A stretch of DNA of 64,000 nucleotides, from contig CAYXQJ010000006.1 in NCBI GenBank assembly GCA_964467455.1, positions 1,867 to 65,866 on the forward strand, in the 5' to 3' direction. The stretch comes from an uncultured Hyphomicrobiales bacterium (lineage in GTDB: Bacteria > Bacteroidota > Ignavibacteria > Kapaibacteriales > Kapaibacteriaceae). Positions 1 to 64,000 of this stretch are shown here, in pieces. The notes beneath the pieces were generated by a model that ran no database searches, was not told where the DNA came from, and saw only the letters and a program-made list of their open reading frames with translations. Every line of letters starts with the position of its first letter. The stretch's first letter is position 1. Both the position numbers and the translations under genes were made by a program.

Positions 1-977
1 ACAATGTGATCGTTGCGTTGAAGCTGGTGGTGATCTTGTTGTTCATCGGCTTTGGCTTCCAGTATGTGAATGCCGACAACTGGGTGCCGTTCATTCCGGA
101 GAACACCGGTGAGTTCGGCGTTTTTGGCTGGAGCGGCATCTTCCGAGCAGCCGGCGTGATCTTCTTTGCCTATATCGGATTCGATGCGGTGTCGACAGCG
201 GCACAGGAGGCGAAGAATCCGCAACGCGATATGCCCATCGGTATTCTAGCGTCGCTCGCCGTGTGTACGGTGTTGTACATTCTTGTGTCGTTAGTGATGA
301 CGGGTCTTGTTCCGTACACGGCGCTCAACGTTCCCGATCCGATCGCCGTTGCTGTTGACGCTGCAAAACTTCCTGACGGTACGTCGGCGCTTGGATGGTT
401 GTCGCCCTTCATCAAGATCGGCGCCATCGCCGGTCTGAGCTCTGTGATCTTGGTGATGTTGATGGGACAGCCGCGGATCTTCTTCACGATGTCGAAGGAT
501 GGTCTTCTTCCGCCGATCTTCTCGAAGGTCCATCCGAAGTTCCGCACACCGGTTGTTTCCACGATCGTTACGGGTGCCGTGGCCATGGCCATTGCCGGCT
601 TCTTGCCGATCAACGTCCTTAGTGAACTTGTTTCGATCGGTACGCTATTGGCCTTTGTGTTGGTCTGTGCTGCCGTGTTGGTGTTGCGCAAGACCCATCC
701 CGATATGGAACGTCCGTTCAAGGTGCCGTTGGTGCCGTTCATTCCGATCGCCGGTATCGTGGTCTGCCTTGCCCAGATGTTGCCGCTGCCGTTGGCAACG
801 TGGGAACGTCTTATCGCATGGCTTGCCATTGGATTGTTGATCTACTTCTTCTACGGCATCGACCATTCGAAAGCCAATAAGGGCAAGACGTGGGCTGCGC
901 TCGGACAAGTACGGTTGATCGTGGCTGCGTGCTGTGTGATGTTCCTCATCTACGTCGCGTGGTCGCTGATCGTCTGA
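1..977 (+). CDS. APC-superfamily amino-acid permease, C-terminal part (5' end outside window)
   Basis: Frame of ORF 6..977 is open to the window edge. Multi-TM translation with FAYIGFDAVSTAAQEAKNPQRDMP, typical of cationic amino-acid/APC permeases. Confidence 0.85.
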   Translation, partial: NVIVALKLVVILLFIGFGFQYVNADNWVPFIPENTGEFGVFGWSGIFRAAGVIFFAYIGFDAVSTAAQEAKNPQRDMPIGILASLAVCTVLYILVSLVMTGLVPYTALNVPDPIAVAVDAAKLPDGTSALGWLSPFIKIGAIAGLSSVILVMLMGQPRIFFTMSKDGLLPPIFSKVHPKFRTPVVSTIVTGAVAMAIAGFLPINVLSELVSIGTLLAFVLVCAAVLVLRKTHPDMERPFKVPLVPFIPIAGIVVCLAQMLPLPLATWERLIAWLAIGLLIYFFYGIDHSKANKGKTWAALGQVRLIVAACCVMFLIYVAWSLIV

Positions 978-2356
978 TGCAGTTTCAAAAAGCTCTCGGC
1001 GTCTATGACGCAACGATGATCGTCGCCGGATCCATGATCGGGTCCGGCGTTTTTATTGTCAGCGCCGACATCGCCCGCACCGTCAACTCTCCCGCCTTGC
1101 TCCTCTTGGTATGGGGCATTACGGGTCTGCTCACCCTGATCGCCGCCTTATCCTACGGCGAACTTGCCGGCATGATGCCGCAGGCCGGAGGACAATACGT
1201 CTACTTGCGTGAGGCCTTTGGTCCGATGGCCGGCTTCTTGTACGGGTGGACGTTATTCTCCGTCATCCAGACCGGCACGATCGCCGCTGTGGCCATGGCC
1301 TTTGCGAAGTTCACGGCCGTGTTGATCCCGTGGTTTTCCGAGAAGCACGCCTTATTCACCATACCCTTTGGTGAAGGTGGTCTCAGCATAAGCGGAGCGC
1401 AGGTGCTTGCCATCATCAGCATCGTCGGACTCACTGCGTTGAATGCTCGCGGCGTCCGTGCGGGGCGCATTGTGCAGAACCTGTTCACGTCAACGAAGGT
1501 CATCGCCGTTGTCGCCCTTGCCATCATCGGCATCATCTACGGCCTTGGCACCGACGCCTTTGTGCAGAACTTCTCGCAGTCCTTTTCTGGTGAGGGGGCT
1601 GCCCAGCCCCTTAATATCATCATCCCGATGATCGCTGTGGCGATGGTGGGGTCGATCTTCAGCAGTGATGCGTGGAACAACATCACGTTCGTTGCCGGCG
1701 AGGTGAAAGATCCGCATCGGACGATCCCGCGGGCGTTGATCCTTGGGGTGACGATGGTGACGGTGTTGTACCTTGCCGCGAACGTGGCCTATTTGAGTGT
1801 GTTGCCGCTGGAGGCGATCAAGCTCGCCGCGAACGATCGTGTTGGTACGGCTGCTGCGGAGATGATCTTTGGTCCGGCCGGTGCGACGATCATGGCTGTG
1901 TTGATCATGATCAGCACGTTCGGGTGCAACAACGGCATCATTCTTTCCGGTGCGCGCGCATATTGGGCGATGTCGAAGGACAACCTCTTTTTTAAGGGGG
2001 CGGGCACGCTCAACAAGAACGACGTGCCGGGCAACGGCTTGTGGATACAGGCCGTGTGGGCGAGTGCGCTATGTCTGAGCGGCAGCTACGGTGATCTCTT
2101 GGACTACGTGGTGTTTGCCGTGTTGATCTTCTACGTGCTGACGATCCTTGGCATCTTCCGTTTGCGCACGACGCGTCCGCAGGCGGAGCGTCCGTACACG
2201 GCCTTCGGTTATCCCTTCGTGCCGGCGTTGTATATCGTCGCGGCGTTGTTCATCTGCGTCATGCTGCTGATCTACAAGCCCGACTATACGTGGCCGGGGC
2301 TGGTGATCGTGGGGTCGGGGGTGCCGGTGTACTACCTCTGGCGCCGCAAGGCGTAG
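977..2356 (+). CDS. APC-family amino-acid permease
   Basis: Start moved to ATG 977, overlapping the upstream stop (TGATG). N-terminus MQFQKALGVYDATMIVAGSMIGSGVF. About 12 hydrophobic segments. The 890 start in the track is an over-extension. Confidence 0.85.
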   Translation: MQFQKALGVYDATMIVAGSMIGSGVFIVSADIARTVNSPALLLLVWGITGLLTLIAALSYGELAGMMPQAGGQYVYLREAFGPMAGFLYGWTLFSVIQTGTIAAVAMAFAKFTAVLIPWFSEKHALFTIPFGEGGLSISGAQVLAIISIVGLTALNARGVRAGRIVQNLFTSTKVIAVVALAIIGIIYGLGTDAFVQNFSQSFSGEGAAQPLNIIIPMIAVAMVGSIFSSDAWNNITFVAGEVKDPHRTIPRALILGVTMVTVLYLAANVAYLSVLPLEAIKLAANDRVGTAAAEMIFGPAGATIMAVLIMISTFGCNNGIILSGARAYWAMSKDNLFFKGAGTLNKNDVPGNGLWIQAVWASALCLSGSYGDLLDYVVFAVLIFYVLTILGIFRLRTTRPQAERPYTAFGYPFVPALYIVAALFICVMLLIYKPDYTWPGLVIVGSGVPVYYLWRRKA

Positions 2357-2359
2357 CCC

Positions 2360-2417
2360 TGCCGGGGAGCAATAGTGCCGGGTAAGCTTGCCGGGGAGCA
2401 ATAGTGCCGGGTAAGGT
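2360..2417. repeat. GCCGGG-doublet repeat, two tandem 29-nt units
   Basis: TGCCGGGGAGCAATAGTGCCGGGTAAG(CT/GT) occurs twice back to back. Each unit contains two TGCCGGG cores 16 nt apart. Lies between convergent 3' ends. Confidence 0.9.
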
Positions 2418-2424
2418 GGCTGCA

Positions 2425-2712
2425 TTACCCTTGATATGAGCGTTTGATCTCAGCGATCTCGACAGAGTACGACGCGTACCAATCACTACGGCCACGTTGC
2501 TGCGCAGTGACATGGTCTGCATTTCTCTTCCATGCCTTAATGTCTTCCTCTGACTCCCAATACGATAGCGCGATCTCCTGTGCGCCCTCTGTAATGGCAC
2601 TGAATTCAAGGCACCTATACTGGGTCAGAGCAAGTTCGCGAAGGTGACGCGCCATGGCGATGTAGTCGTCATCCAACTGCTTGATCGTTGCTCGAAAGAT
2701 CACGACATACAT
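2425..2712 (-). CDS. Antibiotic-biosynthesis-monooxygenase (ABM) domain protein
   Basis: 95-aa ORF MYVVIFRATIK...ALSYWESEEDIKAWK, with the ferredoxin-like ABM/Dabb pattern. Confidence 0.75.
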   Translation of the reverse strand: MYVVIFRATIKQLDDDYIAMARHLRELALTQYRCLEFSAITEGAQEIALSYWESEEDIKAWKRNADHVTAQQRGRSDWYASYSVEIAEIKRSYQG

Positions 2713-2728: not shown

Positions 2729-2786
2729 CTTACCCGGCAGCAATGCTCCCCGGCAAGCTTACCCGGCAGCAATGCTCCCCGGCAAG
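2729..2786. repeat. GCCGGG-doublet repeat, two tandem 29-nt units, inverted relative to 2360-2417
   Basis: CTTACCCGGCAGCAATGCTCCCCGGCAAG occurs twice. Its reverse complement differs from the 2387-2415 unit at 3 central positions. Confidence 0.9.
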
Positions 2787-57257: not shown

Positions 57258-58997
57258 GTGTTCTATCTGCTTGCCCCTTGCACCTTCCTCACCCTTGCAT
57301 CCTTGCTTTCGGCTTGCACCGAGCCCGGCTACCCCGAAGGCGACCTCGGTCCGGCTGCCGGCGGCAAGAAGGCAGGCGGCATTTATCGTGTGAATGAGAC
57401 CGGTGAACTGAGCTCCCTGGATCCGCCACGGATCAACGATGTCACGTCGTCGCATGTCTGTTTGAACATCTTTGACAATCTGATCAACTTCGACGCCGAC
57501 CTCAACATCGCGCCGGAGCTGGCGGACTCGTTCACGATCGGTGACGATGGTACAACGTACACGTACCACTTGCGCACCGATGTCTACTTTCACGACGATG
57601 CATGTTTCCCCAACGGCAGGGGACGTCGGTTCGTTGCTGACGATGTGAAATATTCCTTCACGCGTGTCTGCGACATTCGTGTCGGCACGAAGAACTTCGA
57701 CTACTTCCGCGACAAGGTCGTTGGTGCGAGTGAATATTTCGACGCCACGCGAGAGGTCTTCCGCAACGGCGGTGCACTCAAGGTCAACAACATTCCCGGC
57801 TTCGTCGTTGTCAACGACTCCACGTTCCAGATCAAGTTGACGAAACCCTTCGCCCCTTTCGAGAATTATCCGGCGCTTACGGGCATGGCCATCCATTGTC
57901 GGGAAGCCGTGGAGAAATATGGCAAGGACGTCTCCGAACATCCTGTCGGCACCGGTCCGTTTCAATTCGTCTCGTGGGCACCGGATCGTGAGTTGATCTT
58001 GAAGCGCAATCCGCGATATTGGCGACGCGATGAACACGGCAATCGTCTGCCGCTGCTTGATGGCGTGCGATTCTCCTTCATGAAGGATGACAAACTGCAG
58101 TTGTTGGAGTTCGCCGCAGGGAAGTTGGAAGAATCGTATCGCATCCCGAACGAGTTCTTTGCCAACATCGTTGACGAGAACAAGAATCCGACAGGGAAGT
58201 TCTCGAAGTTCAAGTTGTTGCATGTGCCTGCATTGTCGACGCAGTTCTACGGCATGCTCACGATCGACCCGCTCTTCAAGGACGTCCGCATTCGCAAGGC
58301 CATCAACATGGCCATCGACCGTCGACGCATCATCCGTTACGTCTTGCACGGTCAAGCTGCCGGTCCTGCCGAACACGGCCTTGTTCCTTCCAGCATGCCC
58401 GGTTACGACTATGACTCTGTCCGCGGCTATCGCTACGATCCCGAGCAGGCACGTCGACTTCTCGCCGAGGCAGGCTATCCCGATGGCAAAGGCCTTCCCG
58501 AGATCACCCTCCAATTGAATGCAGGGGGCGGGCGGAACGTCTCCATTGCCGAAGCCATTCAAGGCATGTTGAAAGAGAACCTCAACATCAGCATCAAGTT
58601 GTTGCAAGTGGAGTTCGCCCAACATCTCGAGCAGATCGATGCCGGCCATGCGCCCTTCTATCGTCTGGGTTGGGTGGCCGACTATCCCGATCCGGAATCG
58701 TTCTTGAACCTTTTTTATGGCAAGATCGTGCCGGCATCAGGCGGCATTAGTCCGATCAACCATGTGCGTTTTCGCAATGCCGAGTTTGATGCTGCGTTCG
58801 AGAAGGCCATGACGACCACGGATCGTCAGGAGCGCATGCGCCTATATCGTGTTGCCGAACAGATCGCCATCGACCATGCACCGATGCTGCTGATCATGCA
58901 CGATGAAGATTACCGCTTCATCCAACCCTATGTGATGGACTATCCCAACAACGCCATGGACCGTTTGCGGTTGCATGGTGTGTGGTTTAACCGGTAG
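57258..58997 (+). CDS. ABC transporter substrate-binding lipoprotein, family 5 (peptide/nickel type)
   Basis: Family-5 SBP collinearity (YTYHLRTDVYFHDD.., GTGPFQFVSW.., WVADYPDPESFL). Lipobox LLSAC. GTG 57258 is proposed as the start (uncertain). The track start 56997 overlaps ompA. Confidence 0.75.
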   Translation: MFYLLAPCTFLTLASLLSACTEPGYPEGDLGPAAGGKKAGGIYRVNETGELSSLDPPRINDVTSSHVCLNIFDNLINFDADLNIAPELADSFTIGDDGTTYTYHLRTDVYFHDDACFPNGRGRRFVADDVKYSFTRVCDIRVGTKNFDYFRDKVVGASEYFDATREVFRNGGALKVNNIPGFVVVNDSTFQIKLTKPFAPFENYPALTGMAIHCREAVEKYGKDVSEHPVGTGPFQFVSWAPDRELILKRNPRYWRRDEHGNRLPLLDGVRFSFMKDDKLQLLEFAAGKLEESYRIPNEFFANIVDENKNPTGKFSKFKLLHVPALSTQFYGMLTIDPLFKDVRIRKAINMAIDRRRIIRYVLHGQAAGPAEHGLVPSSMPGYDYDSVRGYRYDPEQARRLLAEAGYPDGKGLPEITLQLNAGGGRNVSIAEAIQGMLKENLNISIKLLQVEFAQHLEQIDAGHAPFYRLGWVADYPDPESFLNLFYGKIVPASGGISPINHVRFRNAEFDAAFEKAMTTTDRQERMRLYRVAEQIAIDHAPMLLIMHDEDYRFIQPYVMDYPNNAMDRLRLHGVWFNR

Positions 58998-59027
58998 AGG
59001 GTAGAGGGTAGAGGGTAGAGGGTAGAG
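58993..59027. repeat. Heptamer array GGTAGAG x5; the first unit contains the SBP stop codon
   Basis: GGTAGAG x5 gives four GGG tracts separated by TAGA. Confidence 0.95.
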
Positions 59028-59030
59028 TCT

Positions 59031-60290
59031 TCATTCGTCGTCGTCACCCTCTGTTTCGAGGTCGGGGATGTGATGAAAGGCGATGCGCATGGGGGCAGAG
59101 TTCTTCGCATTCCACGACGTGCCCATGTAGATGGTGTTCTTACCGTATTTCACGTTGAGTTTGTCGAGTCCGGCGTTGAGGGCTTCGCGGGCCGGTCCGG
59201 TGTTATCGAACAGTGCCATTGGTGTTGCGTCGGCAAAGAACAACTTGGTAAATGCAACAGAGACCTTCATGGGGATGTGCTCGCCCCCTACCTGTTGAGT
59301 GTGTAGTTGTGACCGATCCGGTCGGGCGTTGAGGATGTTGCTGAGGGCGTTCGTGAGTTGAATGATGTCGGCGGTTGGTGTGATGTCGTGATCGAGTTTC
59401 CACTTTGCGCCGTCGCGATAACGAATGCTCACGTAGAGGTTGCCGGTGACGAGTCCGTATGAGCGCAGGCGCATGGCCGCCTTTTGCAGTAGGCGGTGGA
59501 GGACGCCGTTGGAGCCCTCGACGTTGCGCAATGAAGGTTCGAGGACGTGTTGGTGGCTGATGGACGAGGTGCGTGTTTCGATGTGGGGGACGTTGAAGCC
59601 GCGAAGTTTTTGCCACATGCGTTCGCCTTCGACGCTACCCCAGGCGTCGCGGAGTTGGTCCTTGGTGGCATTGCACAACATCTCGACGGTGTAGATGCCG
59701 TGGCGATAGAGGCGCTCATACATCTTGCGTCCGATGCCAACGAGGTCGCGGAGTTCCAGCTTGTAGAGTACGTCGGGCAGATCTTCTTCTTCGATCACAA
59801 CGAGACCGTCGGGTTTCATCATGTCGGTAGCTGTCTTTGCCAAATAGTCGTTTGGTGCGATGCCGACGGAGCACTTGAGGTATTCGCCGACCTGTTGAGC
59901 GATCGTACGTTTGACGTCGTGGGCGAGGGCGACTGCATTCTCGCGCTTGCGCATACGTCCGGTGAGCGAGCAGGCCACTTCGTCGATCGACATCACGCGG
60001 TCGATATGGATGACCGATTCGATCGTCTCAACGAGGCGGTTGTGGAATTCGACGTAGGCGTTATGTCGGGCATGGACCAGGATGAGTCCGGGACACATCT
60101 GTTTTGCTTCGGCGATGCGCGTTCCTGTTTTTACACCGAAGGCCTTGGCTTCATACGAGGCAGCGATAGCGGACGTGGTATCGGTCATCACCGGCACGAT
60201 GGCGATCGGTTTACCTCGCAGCTCGGGGCGTAGTTGTTGTTCGACCGAGGCGAAGTAGGAGTTGAAGTCGATGAAGAGGGAGCGAAGCAA
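59031..60290 (-). CDS. Y-family DNA polymerase (DinB/ImpB-UmuC-like)
   Basis: (M)LRSLFIDFNSYFASVEQQLRPELRGKPIAIVP..SIDE, the Y-family palm motifs. TTG start directly abutted by the repeat array. Confidence 0.8.
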   Translation of the reverse strand: MLRSLFIDFNSYFASVEQQLRPELRGKPIAIVPVMTDTTSAIAASYEAKAFGVKTGTRIAEAKQMCPGLILVHARHNAYVEFHNRLVETIESVIHIDRVMSIDEVACSLTGRMRKRENAVALAHDVKRTIAQQVGEYLKCSVGIAPNDYLAKTATDMMKPDGLVVIEEEDLPDVLYKLELRDLVGIGRKMYERLYRHGIYTVEMLCNATKDQLRDAWGSVEGERMWQKLRGFNVPHIETRTSSISHQHVLEPSLRNVEGSNGVLHRLLQKAAMRLRSYGLVTGNLYVSIRYRDGAKWKLDHDITPTADIIQLTNALSNILNARPDRSQLHTQQVGGEHIPMKVSVAFTKLFFADATPMALFDNTGPAREALNAGLDKLNVKYGKNTIYMGTSWNAKNSAPMRIAFHHIPDLETEGDDDE

Positions 60291-60291
60291 T

Positions 60292-60339
60292 GTGAGAATG
60301 TGAGAATGTGAGAATGTGAGAATGACTCAATGATTCAAT
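60292..60339. repeat. Octamer arrays GTGAGAAT x4 then GA(C/T)TCAAT x2
   Basis: Begins 2 nt from the polymerase start codon. On the sense strand it reads (ATTCTCAC)4, which is G-free. Confidence 0.95.
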
Positions 60340-60343
60340 GTTT

Positions 60344-60457
60344 CGGTTATTCGTTCCTCACCTTCGGATCGGAATGACACTCGGTTATTCGTTCCTCACC
60401 TTCGGATCGGAATGACACTCGGTTATTCGTTCCTCACCTTCGGATCGGAATGACACT
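60344..60457. repeat. 38-nt direct repeat x3 (identical copies, no spacers), each able to form a hairpin
   Basis: CGGTTATTCGTTCCTCACCTTCGGATCGGAATGACACT x3. Arms TCGTTCC/GGAATGA give 6 Watson-Crick pairs plus one G-T. Confidence 0.95.
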
Positions 60458-60497
60458 CGGTTATTCGGTTATTCGGTTATTCGGTTATTCGCTGACT
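60458..60497. repeat. Octamer array CGGTTATT x5, overlapping the 3' end of the DUF2007-like gene
   Basis: The unit equals the first 8 nt of the 38-mer. It encodes the C-terminal NNRITE plus stop of the minus-strand gene. Confidence 0.95.
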
Positions 60498-60702
60498 CGT
60501 CGAGAATCTCTCTTGCGCGTTCCGCATCGGAGGTTGGCACTAGAAGTCTGACGCCGCCGAGGGCGTTGGCCCAGCCCATGCCGATGGAGACTTGTTGTTC
60601 GTTTTCCAGGATGGCGTCGATGCCGGCGTCGATTAGGAGGCCGCGCATGAACTGCGCTTCGAAGGGGAGGTCGTAGGAGGCGATGTGGGTGTAGAGGGAC
60701 AT
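60469..60702 (-). CDS. Small DUF2007-like (putative signal-transducing) protein
   Basis: Start moved to ATG 60702 (MSLYTHIASYDLPFEAQFMRGLLIDAGIDAILENEQ). 77 aa. Confidence 0.5.
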   Translation of the reverse strand: MSLYTHIASYDLPFEAQFMRGLLIDAGIDAILENEQQVSIGMGWANALGGVRLLVPTSDAERAREILDESANNRITE

Positions 60703-60727
60703 ATCCCGCCAATTTACCCACCCGCAT

Positions 60728-60780
60728 CCTTTCCCGGCATCTATGCTTCCCGGCATGGATGCCCGGCATGGATGCCCGGC
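60728..60780. repeat. GCCGGG-doublet repeat (reverse orientation) plus GATGCCCGGCATG x2
   Basis: The reverse complement of 60728-60758 equals CCATGCCGGGAAGCATAGATGCCGGGAAAGG, identical to 62937-62967. Confidence 0.9.
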
Positions 60781-60796
60781 GTACTTTTGGTAACTT

Positions 60797-60821
60797 CGTA
60801 TCTGGATTTAGTCCAGATACG
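60797..60821. promoter_or_regulatory. Perfect 10-bp inverted repeat 4 nt upstream of the feoA start (candidate operator or translational hairpin)
   Basis: CGTATCTGGA-tttag-TCCAGATACG. Confidence 0.45.
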
Positions 60822-60825
60822 AACA

Positions 60826-61053
60826 ATGACCGACCTCCGCCACGTCCCCGTCGACGAACCGTACCGCATCATCGCGGTTGTGGGTGATTCCACCACTGCG
60901 CAGCGCGTACGCGAGCTCGGTCTGCTGCCGGGTGCGGTGTTCCGCATTGTGAGGAAGGCACCGTTCGGTGGACCCTACGAGATCGCCTTGGATCGACGTC
61001 GCATCGGACTGCGCCTGACCGACGAGATCCTTATTACGGCCGAAGCGGCATGA
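60826..61053 (+). CDS. feoA: Ferrous iron transport protein A
   Basis: Start moved to ATG 60826. 75-aa SH3-like FeoA pattern (RVRELGLLPGAVFRIVRKAPFGGPYEIALDRRRIGLR). Overlaps the feoB start. Confidence 0.85.
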   Translation: MTDLRHVPVDEPYRIIAVVGDSTTAQRVRELGLLPGAVFRIVRKAPFGGPYEIALDRRRIGLRLTDEILITAEAA

Positions 61054-62894
61054 ACCGTCCGATTGTCGCCGTCGTCGGCACCCCCAACGTGGGGAAGTCG
61101 ACGCTCTTCAATGCCCTCACCGGTCTGCAACAAAAGGTCGGCAACTTCCCCGGCGTCACCGTCGAGCCGATGGTTGGCCGCACGGTCTACAACGGCACAT
61201 CGACCACGCTGATCGATCTTCCCGGCGTCTACTCACTCACGCCGACGTCGGAAGATGAGCGCCTCACTGCCGACGTTCTGCGCGGTACCCATCCCACCAT
61301 CGAACGTCCCGACGCCATCCTGCTCGTGATGAGCGCCCTCGATCCACAAAAGTGCCTCGTCCTCTACAGCGCCTTGGCTGAACTCGGCTTACCGATCGCG
61401 ATCGCCGTCACGATGGTCGATACCATCAAAGCCCGCGGCGGTGTGTTCGACGACATCGGCGTGATGCACGACCTCGGTGCGAAGATCTTTCCCGTTGTGG
61501 GTTCAAAAGGCCTCGGCGTCGGAGATCTTCAACATGCCCTCAGTACCGTATCAACATGGACGGTCCCCACGCCCCCTATCAACAACGAATGCACGTTGGA
61601 AGAGCGATTCGAATGGGCCAGCGGACTCATCGAGCGTCATGTGCGCACTGGGGCGCCGGATGAAATGTCGGAACGTCTCGACAACATCCTGCTGCATCCT
61701 GTCTGGGGCGGACTGGTCTTCGTCGTCGTAATGGCCTTCTTCTTCCAGAGCATCTTCGCGTGGGCCGAACCACTCACCGGTGCGATCGAATCGTTGATCG
61801 CCCTTGTGCAAGACGGCATCAACACAACGTTGCCCGATACGCTGCTAAGATCTTTCCTTGTAAAAGGTGTGATAGGGGGCGTGGGGTCCGTGATCGTGTT
61901 CTTGCCGCAGATCCTCATTCTGAATTTGTTGGTGACGGTGCTTGAAGAGTGCGGATACTTAGCGCGTGCGGCCTTCCTTGTAGATCGTGTGATGGGCGTG
62001 TTTGGTCTGCAAGGCCGGTCCTTCATTCCATTGCTCGGATCCTTCGCGTGTGCGATCCCGGGTATCATGTCGGCGCGGATCATCCCGTCGCACAAAGACC
62101 GGCTGGCGACGATCATGGCAACGCCGTTGATGACGTGTTCGGCGCGACTGCCGGTGTATACGTTGATCATCGGTGCGGTGATCCCGGCATCGACGGTGTT
62201 TGGGTTCTTCTCGCTGCAGGGTGTGGTGATGGCATCGCTGTATGTTGCCGGTGCTGTGAGTGGATTGTTGATCGCCTTGTTCTTGAAGCGCACGATGTTT
62301 CGTGGAGCCGTCGTTCCATTCTTGATCGAGTTCCCGCCGTATCGAGTACCGTCGTTGAAGAGTGTCGGCATCACGATGGTCGGTCGGTCCAAAGACTTCC
62401 TCAAGACCGCGGGCACGGTGATCCTGGCGTTTTCGATCGGCTTGTGGATCCTGACAGAAGTGCCGCGGGCCGAGATCCCTGAAGGTGTGAGTGGTGTGCA
62501 GGCCGAGCACATCCAGATCGAGCAGTCGATGGCCGCGTCGATCGGCAAAACCATCCAGCCCGTCTTTGCGCCGTTGGGTTTTGACTGGCGGATCACGCTT
62601 GGTGTGTTGTCGAGTTACGCGGCCCGCGAGACCTTCGTCAGCGCCATGGGCCAGATCTACGCCGCCGACGTTGCCGAGTCGGACGAGCCCTTGCGGAATG
62701 TGCTACGTCGAGCCATGCCGCTGCCCGTCGGCCTATCGGTCTTGGCCTTCTACGTCTACGCCCTGCAGTGCATCAGCACCATGGCCATCATGCGTCGGGA
62801 GACGGGGACGTGGAAGTGGCCCGCTCTGGCATTTGCCATCACGCTGGTGTTGGCGTATATAGCGTCCTTGGTGGTGTACACCGCCGCCTCGTAA
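61050..62894 (+). CDS. feoB: Ferrous iron transporter B
   Basis: N-terminal G-domain VVGTPNVGKSTLFNALTG. Polytopic C-terminal permease with gate motifs. Confidence 0.95.
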   Translation: MNRPIVAVVGTPNVGKSTLFNALTGLQQKVGNFPGVTVEPMVGRTVYNGTSTTLIDLPGVYSLTPTSEDERLTADVLRGTHPTIERPDAILLVMSALDPQKCLVLYSALAELGLPIAIAVTMVDTIKARGGVFDDIGVMHDLGAKIFPVVGSKGLGVGDLQHALSTVSTWTVPTPPINNECTLEERFEWASGLIERHVRTGAPDEMSERLDNILLHPVWGGLVFVVVMAFFFQSIFAWAEPLTGAIESLIALVQDGINTTLPDTLLRSFLVKGVIGGVGSVIVFLPQILILNLLVTVLEECGYLARAAFLVDRVMGVFGLQGRSFIPLLGSFACAIPGIMSARIIPSHKDRLATIMATPLMTCSARLPVYTLIIGAVIPASTVFGFFSLQGVVMASLYVAGAVSGLLIALFLKRTMFRGAVVPFLIEFPPYRVPSLKSVGITMVGRSKDFLKTAGTVILAFSIGLWILTEVPRAEIPEGVSGVQAEHIQIEQSMAASIGKTIQPVFAPLGFDWRITLGVLSSYAARETFVSAMGQIYAADVAESDEPLRNVLRRAMPLPVGLSVLAFYVYALQCISTMAIMRRETGTWKWPALAFAITLVLAYIASLVVYTAAS

Positions 62895-62895
62895 T

Positions 62896-62968
62896 CATGC
62901 CGGGAAGCATAGATGCCGGGAAAGGACTCCGGGAAACCATGCCGGGAAGCATAGATGCCGGGAAAGGA
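62896..62968. repeat. GCCGGG-doublet repeat, two identical 31-nt units separated by 11 nt
   Basis: CATGCCGGGAAGCATAGATGCCGGGAAAGGA at 62896-62926 and 62938-62968. Confidence 0.95.
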
Positions 62969-62973
62969 ACGTT

Positions 62974-63585
62974 ATGCAAAATGATAGACCGAATCTAGAC
63001 CTCGCGCGTCAGTTCACGCGCGACATTGGACCGGCGACCATGATCGTCGGTGCCTTGATCGTGATCCACGCCGTTGTGCTGCAGATCATCGGCTCGACCT
63101 TCGTCGAGCTGTTCGTGCTTCCCTATGGATTGATGATGATCTTGTTTGGTGCCGCAGCGTTCGCACGCACCGAGTCGATGTCCGGACAAGGACTTCGCTG
63201 GGTCGTGGTCTTGGTCTTTGCAGGGGGCGGAGCATTCTCCCTTTGGAAATGGGCAGGACTCATCTGGGGGTCGCGCTCTGAAGCGATGATGGGCGATCCT
63301 CTGATGATGGGATTCTATTTGATGGCCGGGCCTGCGTTGTTGGTGCCTGCAGGCCTCGCCGCCGTGCGTCCGGGATGGGTACCGTTGATCGCTGTGCCCG
63401 CGATCGTCTCACTTGCCGGCGGCAGCGTGTTGGGGCATGGCACCTATGTGTTGCTTGAGCAATTCAAGACCACGGAATTGCGCAGTCCTCTTCCCGACAC
63501 CATGCTGCTCCTTGGCGTGGTGCTGACGTCGGCGGCATTGATCCTGTATTCTGCGCAGCGCGGCATAGCACTTCGAACAAAGTGA
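62974..63585 (+). CDS. Hypothetical membrane protein (about 6 TM)
   Basis: 203-aa hydrophobic ORF. No motif recognised. Confidence 0.55.
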   Translation: MQNDRPNLDLARQFTRDIGPATMIVGALIVIHAVVLQIIGSTFVELFVLPYGLMMILFGAAAFARTESMSGQGLRWVVVLVFAGGGAFSLWKWAGLIWGSRSEAMMGDPLMMGFYLMAGPALLVPAGLAAVRPGWVPLIAVPAIVSLAGGSVLGHGTYVLLEQFKTTELRSPLPDTMLLLGVVLTSAALILYSAQRGIALRTK

Positions 63586-63589
63586 GATC

Positions 63590-63618
63590 CATGCCGGGAA
63601 GCAGAGATGCCGGGAAGG
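63590..63618. repeat. GCCGGG-doublet repeat, single unit, 2 nt from the transposase-like gene stop
   Basis: CATGCCGGGAAGCAGAGATGCCGGGAAGG. Confidence 0.9.
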
Positions 63619-63620
63619 CT

Positions 63621-64000
63621 TTAGACAAGCCTCATGTCTGCAAGATCTTTGGCGAGGTCTTCGTCGTCGATCTTTGTTGAGTGAAGGTCTGTTAGAACGT
63701 AACGTGCGTACTCCTGCGCGCTGCCAAACACATCGTGTACCATTTTGTGTTCGGCCGTGATGAAGTCACGCTCGCTCACGCATTCAGCGTAGTTCGAGTA
63801 CATCCACGATCCGGGATGCGAAACGAGACCTGCTTTCACGGGGTTGCGATGGATATACTTACAGAGGCACTTGAAGTACGAGTCAGTCTTTACATGCTTG
63901 ATCTTGTAGCGGCCCTCATAGATCGTTCCGGTGCGCCGGAGATCTTTGTTGATGCGCTTCGAATACACGCCGCACATCAACATGAGAAAGCGATCTGCGC
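63621..64000 (-). CDS. IS200/IS605-type Y1 (HUH) transposase-like protein, RAYT-like; C-terminal part only (gene runs off window)
   Basis: GRYKIKHVKTDSYFKCLCKYIHRNPVKAGLVSHPGSWMYSNY matches the Y1_Tnp/RAYT C-terminal signature (YIH.NPVKAGLV...W.YS.Y). The frame is open to the window edge. Confidence 0.65.
   Translation of the reverse strand, partial: ADRFLMLMCGVYSKRINKDLRRTGTIYEGRYKIKHVKTDSYFKCLCKYIHRNPVKAGLVSHPGSWMYSNYAECVSERDFITAEHKMVHDVFGSAQEYARYVLTDLHSTKIDDEDLAKDLADMRLV

Follow-up and report, generated by a model that had tools for sequence, protein, structure and literature searches.

A 64,000-nt stretch of DNA (contig C6:1867-65866, hereafter the window) from an uncultured bacterium of the Kapaibacteriaceae carries short intergenic repeats built from pairs of GCCGGG cores, the last of which adjoins a gene for a Y1 endonuclease of the HUH type. 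These doublets are probably the partner repeats of lineage-specific Y1 (HUH) single-stranded DNA (ssDNA) endonucleases of the kind represented by repetitive extragenic palindromic (REP)-associated tyrosine transposases (RAYTs) or by their relatives flanked by terminal inverted repeats (TIRYTs). The arrangement resembles a REPtron or TIRtron in which enzymes and repeats have co-diversified, by a mechanism that we infer. The initial annotation, made from the sequence of the window, had left two options, an atypical class of RAYT substrate or a coincidental adjacency. The first is now supported over the second by subfamily-specific repeats on both flanks of the genes, by the RAYT-like character of the protein, and by the co-occurrence of repeats and gene. 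A hairpin with a GTAG tag is the defining repeat of REP/RAYT systems, whose biochemistry, to our knowledge, comes entirely from one Escherichia coli enzyme.

Eight matches to TGCCGGG-N9-TGCCGGG (at most one mismatch) were observed in the window against 0.02 expected, and none of 100 shuffled sequences reached eight. The matches lie at 2360, 2389, 2733(-), 2762(-), 60733(-), 62898, 62940 and 63592, exactly where the initial annotation had listed its repeats, and each doublet falls between open reading frames (ORFs), as had been claimed. The site listed at 60728 carries two extra 13-nt modules beyond its doublet, out to 60783. The last unit ends at 63618-63620 and the stop codon of the Y1 gene occupies 63621-63623, in keeping with the reported gap of 2 nt; an identical 30-nt copy of this unit is found across the Y1 gene, beyond the window, at C6 66155-66184. 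The units had also been described as direct doublets spaced 16 nt apart with no canonical REP hairpin, and both spacing counts and folding bore this out. Folded as ssDNA, units and doublets gave -2.4 to -10.4 kcal/mol (z +0.3 to -1.5), no better than shuffled sequences, and the sole pairing was a 4-bp CCGG:CCGG.

The Y1 gene is complete a short distance past the end of the window (Table 1). Its product contains YIHRNPVKAGLV, with the motifs PNHFHIL (HUH) and YIHRNP, and the Y1 HUH-transposase signature recognized earlier in the partial ORF was confirmed by Pfam (Y1_Tnp, E 6.6e-11). The only relevant sequence match in the PDB was E. coli TnpA_REP (4ER8), and the catalytic residues are intact: H60-F-H62 and Tyr120 (Y120-IHRNP) align to H59, H61 and Y115 of 4ER8. 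An AlphaFold2 model built with 57 homologues had a pLDDT of 93.5, and its best PDB match in Foldseek was again 4ER8 (TM 0.73 over the whole 165-aa chain), whereas the IS608, ISDra2 and IS200 TnpA proteins matched over the core only (TM 0.57-0.68). At the C-terminus the 197-aa protein has a helical tail of about 55 aa, in which no helix-turn-helix (HTH) domain was detected with Pfam.

Placement of the protein, which the initial annotation had proposed as a check, favored RAYTs over IS200. The NCBIfam model REP_Tyr_transpos scored 68 bits, below its cut-off of 80, and the IS200 model 14.5 bits; 4ER8 was the top fold, no identical copies of the gene were found, and the locus leaves no room for insertion sequence ends of its own. 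With IS200/IS605 elements (IS608, ISDra2 TnpA) the protein shares the Y1 HUH core fold and, presumably, ssDNA chemistry. Unlike those elements, the gene is accompanied by neither tnpB nor subterminal hairpins that belong to it, its stop lies 2 nt from the repeat, and its tyrosine motif is Y---NP rather than Y---Q.

An inverted copy of the repeat had been predicted for the 5' flank of the gene, which lay outside the window. A 76-nt leader upstream of the start codon is followed by a seven-core array of the same subfamily (C) at C6 66157-66255. The predicted second flank is thus present, but its orientation is direct, the first 30 nt of the array being identical to the downstream unit and in the same orientation. 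Within the Y1 leaders (C6 66081-66156, L001, L002, L086-L103), 19 of 21 orthologs have a conserved motif, (T/C)GTCAC(G/A), 53-74 nt before the start codon, between array and gene and often with CACTA about 20 nt later. The motif may serve transcription, as promoter or operator, or be a site for recognition of the end.

The repeat family was then defined across the whole source genome (G000; 4.5 Mb, 216 contigs, 56.5% GC) as clusters of GCCGGG cores 11-18 nt apart. This gave 62 intergenic sites with 226 cores in total; about 28 other scattered two-core and three-core matches, mostly within ORFs, look like chance. The distances between TGCCGGG copies on the same strand show sharp maxima at 16 nt (77 cases) and 13 nt (39 cases), which corresponds to a 29-nt unit of core, 10 nt, core and 7 nt. 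Four subfamilies were distinguished: A (TTGCCGGGGAAGTAAGATGCCGGGGAAGG, 18 sites), B (TTGCCGGGGAGCAATAGTGCCGGGTAAGC, 11 sites), C (CATGCCGGGAAGCATAGATGCCGGGAAAGG with 13-nt modules GATGCCGGG(A/C)A(G/T)GG, 21 sites) and D (GACGCCGGGAGAGTATAACGCCGGGAGT, 12 sites). The commonest site type is a double unit with four cores (27 sites). The sites form marked clusters. For 45 of the 62 another site lies within 3 kb, where 2000 randomized trials gave 4.6 such sites on average and 16 at most, and among 30 adjacent pairs 24 share the subfamily and 23 the orientation. About 780 kb of large contigs (C2-C5) are free of sites.

Direct TGCCGGG junctions outnumber inverted ones by about 116 to 20, and a small number of hairpins or inverted doublets exist in every subfamily, for example at C6 108169 (TGCCGGGGAACTTACTTCCCCGGCA), at C36 31841 (CGCCGGGAGAATATGTCTCCCGGCG) and, for B, as inverted doublets on C9, C13 and C25. 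In units A-D neither GTAG nor GTGG recurs at a constant place. Of the 11 positions of the half-site TTGCCGGGGAA, 9 agree with its reverse complement, so that a direct doublet amounts to a weak pseudo-hairpin containing G·G mismatches, although such a structure may suffice in the enzyme-bound state. A fifth repeat family, E, has a GTCGGG core (GTTGTCGGGTGAAAGTACCCCCGACAAC), and its form GTTGTCGGG...CCCGACAAC mixes true hairpins with direct 14-nt half-sites. It was seen at C36 31738-31789, C13 1243-1312, C30 20638-20678 and nine other loci, usually adjoining D sites, including beside the C36 Y1 gene.

A search of the genome by tblastn and with the Pfam model recovered exactly three full Y1 copies, 41-52% identical to one another, with motifs NHFH/NHVH, YE/FQ/FQ and YIHRNP/YIHLNP/YIHANP. 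When the association of repeats with Y1 paralogs was checked, as the initial annotation had suggested, each of the three genes proved to have its own subfamily on both flanks (Table 1). The gene-flanking 16-mers occur 7, 19 and 31 times genome-wide, and with about 62 sites among about 4000 intergenic regions the probability that six of six flanks would be occupied by chance was estimated at about 1e-11. A fourth, degenerate Y1-like ORF was found at C14 25700-26250 (PF01797 Y1_Tnp, 31 bits, HUH-like DHIHVL). It was rejected as a fourth partner, there being no GCCGGG repeats at the locus; the ORF is preceded by (CCAGGTG)3 and (TTCCCAG)5.

Table 1 Repeat sites and Y1 genes in the window (first seven rows, window positions) and the three full Y1 paralogs of the source genome (last three rows, contig positions).
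Feature	Position	Strand	Context
Subfamily B array, two 29-nt units (4 GCCGGG cores)	2360..2417	+	begins 3 nt past the stop of transporter gene 890..2356
Subfamily B array, two units	2729..2786	-	with 2360-2417 encloses 95-aa ABM-like gene 2425..2712
Subfamily C site, 4 cores (one 16-nt doublet and two 13-nt modules)	60727..60783	-	divergent region, DUF2007 gene / feoA
Subfamily C unit	62896..62926	+	1-2 nt past feoB stop
Second subfamily C unit	62938..62968	+	42 nt after the first unit
Subfamily C unit, variant GCAGAG	63590..63620	+	between the stop of ORF 62974..63585 and the Y1 gene stop
Y1 HUH gene, 3' part (C-terminal 125 aa)	63621..64000	-	RAYT/TIRYT-like, full protein 197 aa
Y1 paralog, C6	65487-66080 (window-equivalent 63621-64214)	-	subfamily C both sides, flanks direct
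Y1 paralog, C36	31904-32497	-	subfamily D both sides, flanks direct
Y1 paralog, C12	7987-8573	+	subfamily A both sides, flanks inverted

Occupation of both flanks at all three Y1 genes also bears on a quite unlikely explanation in which the doublets have nothing to do with these genes and serve as double-stranded DNA sites for a host regulator or nucleoid protein, or as RNA-level 3'-end elements. The strictly conserved core and its fixed 16/13-nt spacing would fit such a role, as would the position of many sites 0-20 nt past stop codons or in promoter regions. A metatranscriptome contig also spans feoB, the repeat and the next ORF, from which the repeat appears to be transcribed. Non-core spacer positions, however, are nearly identical within each subfamily, which indicates copying rather than convergent site selection, and sites are extremely clustered in few regions and absent from about 780 kb of large contigs. 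Neither a T-run nor a terminator hairpin was seen in the units, and Rfam gave no match at E <= 0.1 in 58000-64000, so that both a terminator and a known RNA family were rejected. Three further ideas were considered. A G-quadruplex, suggested by Charnavets 2015, was judged from the sequences and is no general property: doublets with four runs of GGGG occur in subfamily A alone, with loops of 9-12 nt, and C and D have GGG only. For a replication strand bias, orientation compared with local GC skew gave an odds ratio of 2.2 (p = 0.2, with sites that are non-independent). The genes bracketed by sites are ordinary (ABM, feoB, GNAT, HAD, OmpA-like, T9SS proteins, helicase), which spoke against an integron or cassette reading; their GC is near that of their flanks (0.52-0.63), ABM (0.51) and the Y1 cassettes being the exceptions, and the bracketing follows from the clustering of sites.

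The association extends beyond the source genome. In 13 genomes belonging to the same bacterial family the flanks of 17 orthologs were inspected, and every ortholog had repeats with a CCGGG core on at least one side. Their architecture varies, with hairpins in 10, direct arrays in 5 and both in 2. In a scan of genome contigs the closest named relative was the Ignavibacteria metagenome-assembled genome JACPPD01 (G003). Its ortholog is 48% identical and has GCCGGGAGGCATATGCTGCCGGGTAAGA arrays on both flanks with a period of 29 nt (17 + 12) and one perfect palindrome beside the gene; periods of 12 and 13 nt also occur there. Direct or mixed flanks were likewise seen in G024 (CCCGGCAGCCT repeated), G010 (14-nt period), G006_C22 and G013. 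Among the hairpins, that of G020 (ATGCCGGGAAAGTATAGTTCCCGGCAT; -12.4 kcal/mol, z -7.4) shares the half-site of subfamily C and has a similar loop, its second arm being inverted instead of direct, and that of G012 and G018 (ATTCCGGGAGATAATGATTCCCGGAAT) has about 25 dispersed copies, often as inverted pairs. Hairpin-type flanks were also found in G008, G009, G004, G002, G006_C43 and both G014 copies. On a maximum-likelihood tree of 21 enzymes, hairpin and direct architecture must have replaced each other at least five times, and direct arrays arose in several separate branches.

The frequency of hairpins among the relatives, together with the few hairpin or inverted-doublet versions within each subfamily and the presence of hairpin family E beside D sites at the C36 gene and elsewhere, might indicate that these rarer arrangements are the true substrates and that direct doublets are inert products of slippage or imprecise processing. 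We regard this as very unlikely, given the excess of direct over inverted junctions, the repeated origin of direct arrays in the enzyme tree, and the well-conserved direct units, of which the hairpin-free arrays touching the C6 and C12 genes are composed.

Within the genus, doublets were counted as GCCGGG-N9-11-GCCGGG, a pattern for which controls gave 0-5 matches. The source genome has 121 doublets and three gene copies, and G003 has 122 and three. Lower counts accompany the gene in G002 (31 doublets, one copy), G006 (29, two copies) and G004 (10, one copy), and two genomes with one copy and a hairpin-type flank, G008 and G009, have 4 and 0 doublets, respectively. The gene is missing from G005 (4 doublets), from the closed genome G007 (2 doublets) and from G001 (66 doublets; 80% complete, 300 contigs), and in a scan of these three with the Pfam model the only hit was a weak partial Y1-like ORF of the C14 type. 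The initial annotation had asked whether repeat abundance tracks the gene among relatives. It does so in this genus, abundant doublets being found only with the gene except in the low-quality G001, and no high-quality genome pairs abundant doublets with a missing gene.

In a Logan contig of a different sample the enzyme is 98% identical and the order of mgtE-like gene, array, Y1 gene, unit and ORF203 is preserved, with the upstream array shorter by 26 nt (two 13-nt modules). The pair downstream of feoB has one 42-nt unit fewer in a metatranscriptome contig of a related strain, and contigs of other runs have gained 22 nt at the unit downstream of the Y1 gene. Arrays thus change length between strains. 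A strain with about 97.5% identity retains the two B doublets on either side of the ABM gene. The ABM-like gene between them (window 2425-2712) had zero contig depth in run X9, in which both neighboring genes were present; it may be a presence/absence polymorphism, although contigs cannot prove absence. At L097 2173-2290 of the related strain, compared with window 63560-63620, about 65-80 extra nt lie between the Y1-downstream unit and the end of ORF203. Within this insert tccttgcaaatca...tgatttgcaagga form an inverted repeat, and ORF203 has a different C-terminal sequence.

The position of the C6 gene in a related strain bears on an explanation that reverses cause and effect, in which the doublets spread independently of any enzyme, by slippage, recombination or gene conversion, and mobile Y1 cassettes prefer to insert into the arrays. 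The cassettes do have a lower GC content (46-50%) than their surroundings (about 57-60%), the C6 gene lies between two identical 30-nt direct copies, as if an array had been split, and the genome contains other dispersed tandem arrays that have no enzyme. The paralogs, however, are old, as their divergence indicates, and single-copy, and each lies in a different subfamily; the C6 gene is at the same position in the related strain; and orthologs across the family each have lineage-specific CCGGG-core repeats, a pattern that requires long co-evolution and not repeated insertions. We therefore consider this explanation unlikely.

Under the preferred reading, in which the doublets are the partner repeats of the Y1 enzymes, the building block is a half-site of 12-16 nt whose (G/T)CCGGG core precedes a run of purines. 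In the source genome such half-sites are mostly set head-to-tail, 16 + 13 nt apart, in a 29-nt unit that is often doubled, and in relatives head-to-head, as classical hairpins. Each paralogous enzyme would have co-diversified with its own repeat subfamily, and its gene sits inside an array of that subfamily. The half-site core is the only element common to all architectures and genomes, and for this reason recognition of the half-site core on ssDNA is proposed. The enzyme would then cut at a fixed offset and rejoin the ends, E. coli TnpA_REP being capable of strand transfer. Such cutting and rejoining might copy units into nearby intergenic ssDNA and add or remove array modules, one core per period, and replication slippage would contribute further length variation; slippage could also explain the variation in array length equally well.

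A stronger version holds that this enzyme clade recognizes a 12-16-nt single-stranded half-site and not a hairpin, that it builds and reshapes arrays by one cut per module with rejoining of the ends, and that hairpin REPs and direct arrays are interchangeable products of one reaction. It is suggested by the number of architecture switches in the enzyme tree and by the presence of both forms within single subfamilies of the source genome, and we put it forward only tentatively.

Several observations weigh against the partner-repeat reading. Subfamily B has no enzyme gene in the assembly, and two of the three genes (C6 and C36) have direct rather than inverted flanks. E. coli TnpA_REP requires a hairpin and a 5' GTAG, and the units of the source genome have neither. 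That enzymes of this Y1 branch cleave GCCGGG units is purely our inference. Other dispersed tandem arrays have no clear enzyme partner, namely (TTCCCAG)n at about 37 loci and (CGGTTATT)n at about 29 loci, so part of the array spread may be enzyme-independent. No newly inserted or empty sites were seen in the Logan contigs of other strains, which break at every repeat and cannot show absence. Doublets are abundant in G001, from whose incomplete assembly the gene is missing, and G007 has about 45 CCGGG...CCCGG hairpins and no such gene, although these could be relics or ordinary stem-loops.

TnpA-Y1 subclass 2.1 of Quentin et al. 2018 (PMC6006769) equals Bertels group 1 and the TIRYTs of Di Nocera et al. 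2013 (PMC3733652). It was reported to be without REP-like sequences and to have the motifs NHVH or NH[YF]H, W[EQ] or FQ, and YIELNP or Y[IV]HLNP (PMC6006769, Table 1). TIRYT genes have flanking terminal inverted repeats, often GGGGWSAS, and some of these repeats are moderately abundant and form dimers or clusters (PMC3733652). The Y1 proteins of the source genome, with NH[FV]H, FQ and YIH[RLA]NP, appear to fit TIRYT/subclass 2.1 better than canonical RAYTs, as judged from their motifs. They also resemble TIRYTs in being low-copy divergent paralogs and in having non-REP flanking repeats that form moderately abundant families in dimers and clusters, and CGGGAGAG (subfamily D and G003 units) matches 7 of 8 positions of GGGGWSAS. 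The likeness is incomplete. The flanks are arrays of half-sites, mostly direct and inverted only at C12; the copy number is high (226 cores, 62 sites); and true hairpins occur in relatives, although REP-like sequences were reported to be lacking from subclass 2.1. Proteins of that subclass have a median length of 238 aa with an extra C-terminal HTH-like domain, where the protein described here has 197 aa and a helical tail with no Pfam HTH match.

In the literature the hallmark of RAYT/REP systems is one paralog per repeat family, with the repeat both flanking the gene and dispersed. The source genome resembles REPtrons (E. coli YafM, 4ER8; Pseudomonas RAYTs) in this respect, each paralog having its own repeat family beside the gene and in intergenic regions elsewhere, and also in the best fold match, the conserved HUH and tyrosine residues, the Y---NP motif, and an inheritance that is apparently vertical, gene order being kept in the related strain. 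It differs from them in the lack of a stable hairpin and of a 5' GT[AG]G tag, in the direct flanks of two of the three genes, in the strong clustering of sites, and in a REP_Tyr_transpos score below the cut-off; the doublets are direct, unlike the inverted ones of REPINs. The comparison supports a locus that works like a REPtron or TIRtron yet fails two defining features of REPs, the hairpin and the GT[AG]G tag. Full-text literature searches found no description of these repeats, of direct-doublet REPs, or of this arrangement.

Other features of the genome were noted in passing. An (CGGTTATT)n octamer array and a 38-nt repeat lie at window 60400-60497, upstream of a Y-family polymerase gene, and the dispersal of such octamer arrays over many contigs indicates a genome unusually rich in dispersed short tandem arrays. 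A large CRISPR-like array at C61 1416-9535 contains 133 copies of a repeat with CTGCCGCACAGGCAGCTCAGAAA at 60-nt spacing. The assembly has 6.35% contamination and is larger than genomes of the same genus (1.9-2.8 Mb); its GC content is fairly uniform (54-58%), and some contigs may be foreign.

The three paralogs and their three subfamilies in one genome, together with relatives of the hairpin type, form a natural comparison set for recognition by Y1 enzymes. Several contigs terminate inside D arrays, which shows that the repeats break the assembly, and in short-read data they can thus hide enzyme genes in metagenome bins. The present analysis assigns abundant partner repeats to a subclass 2.1/TIRYT-like branch that was published as being without REPs. 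If recognition of the half-site proves true, a hairpin would not be a universal requirement for REP-type Y1 enzymes, and subclass 2.1 (TIRYT) would gain a defined substrate.

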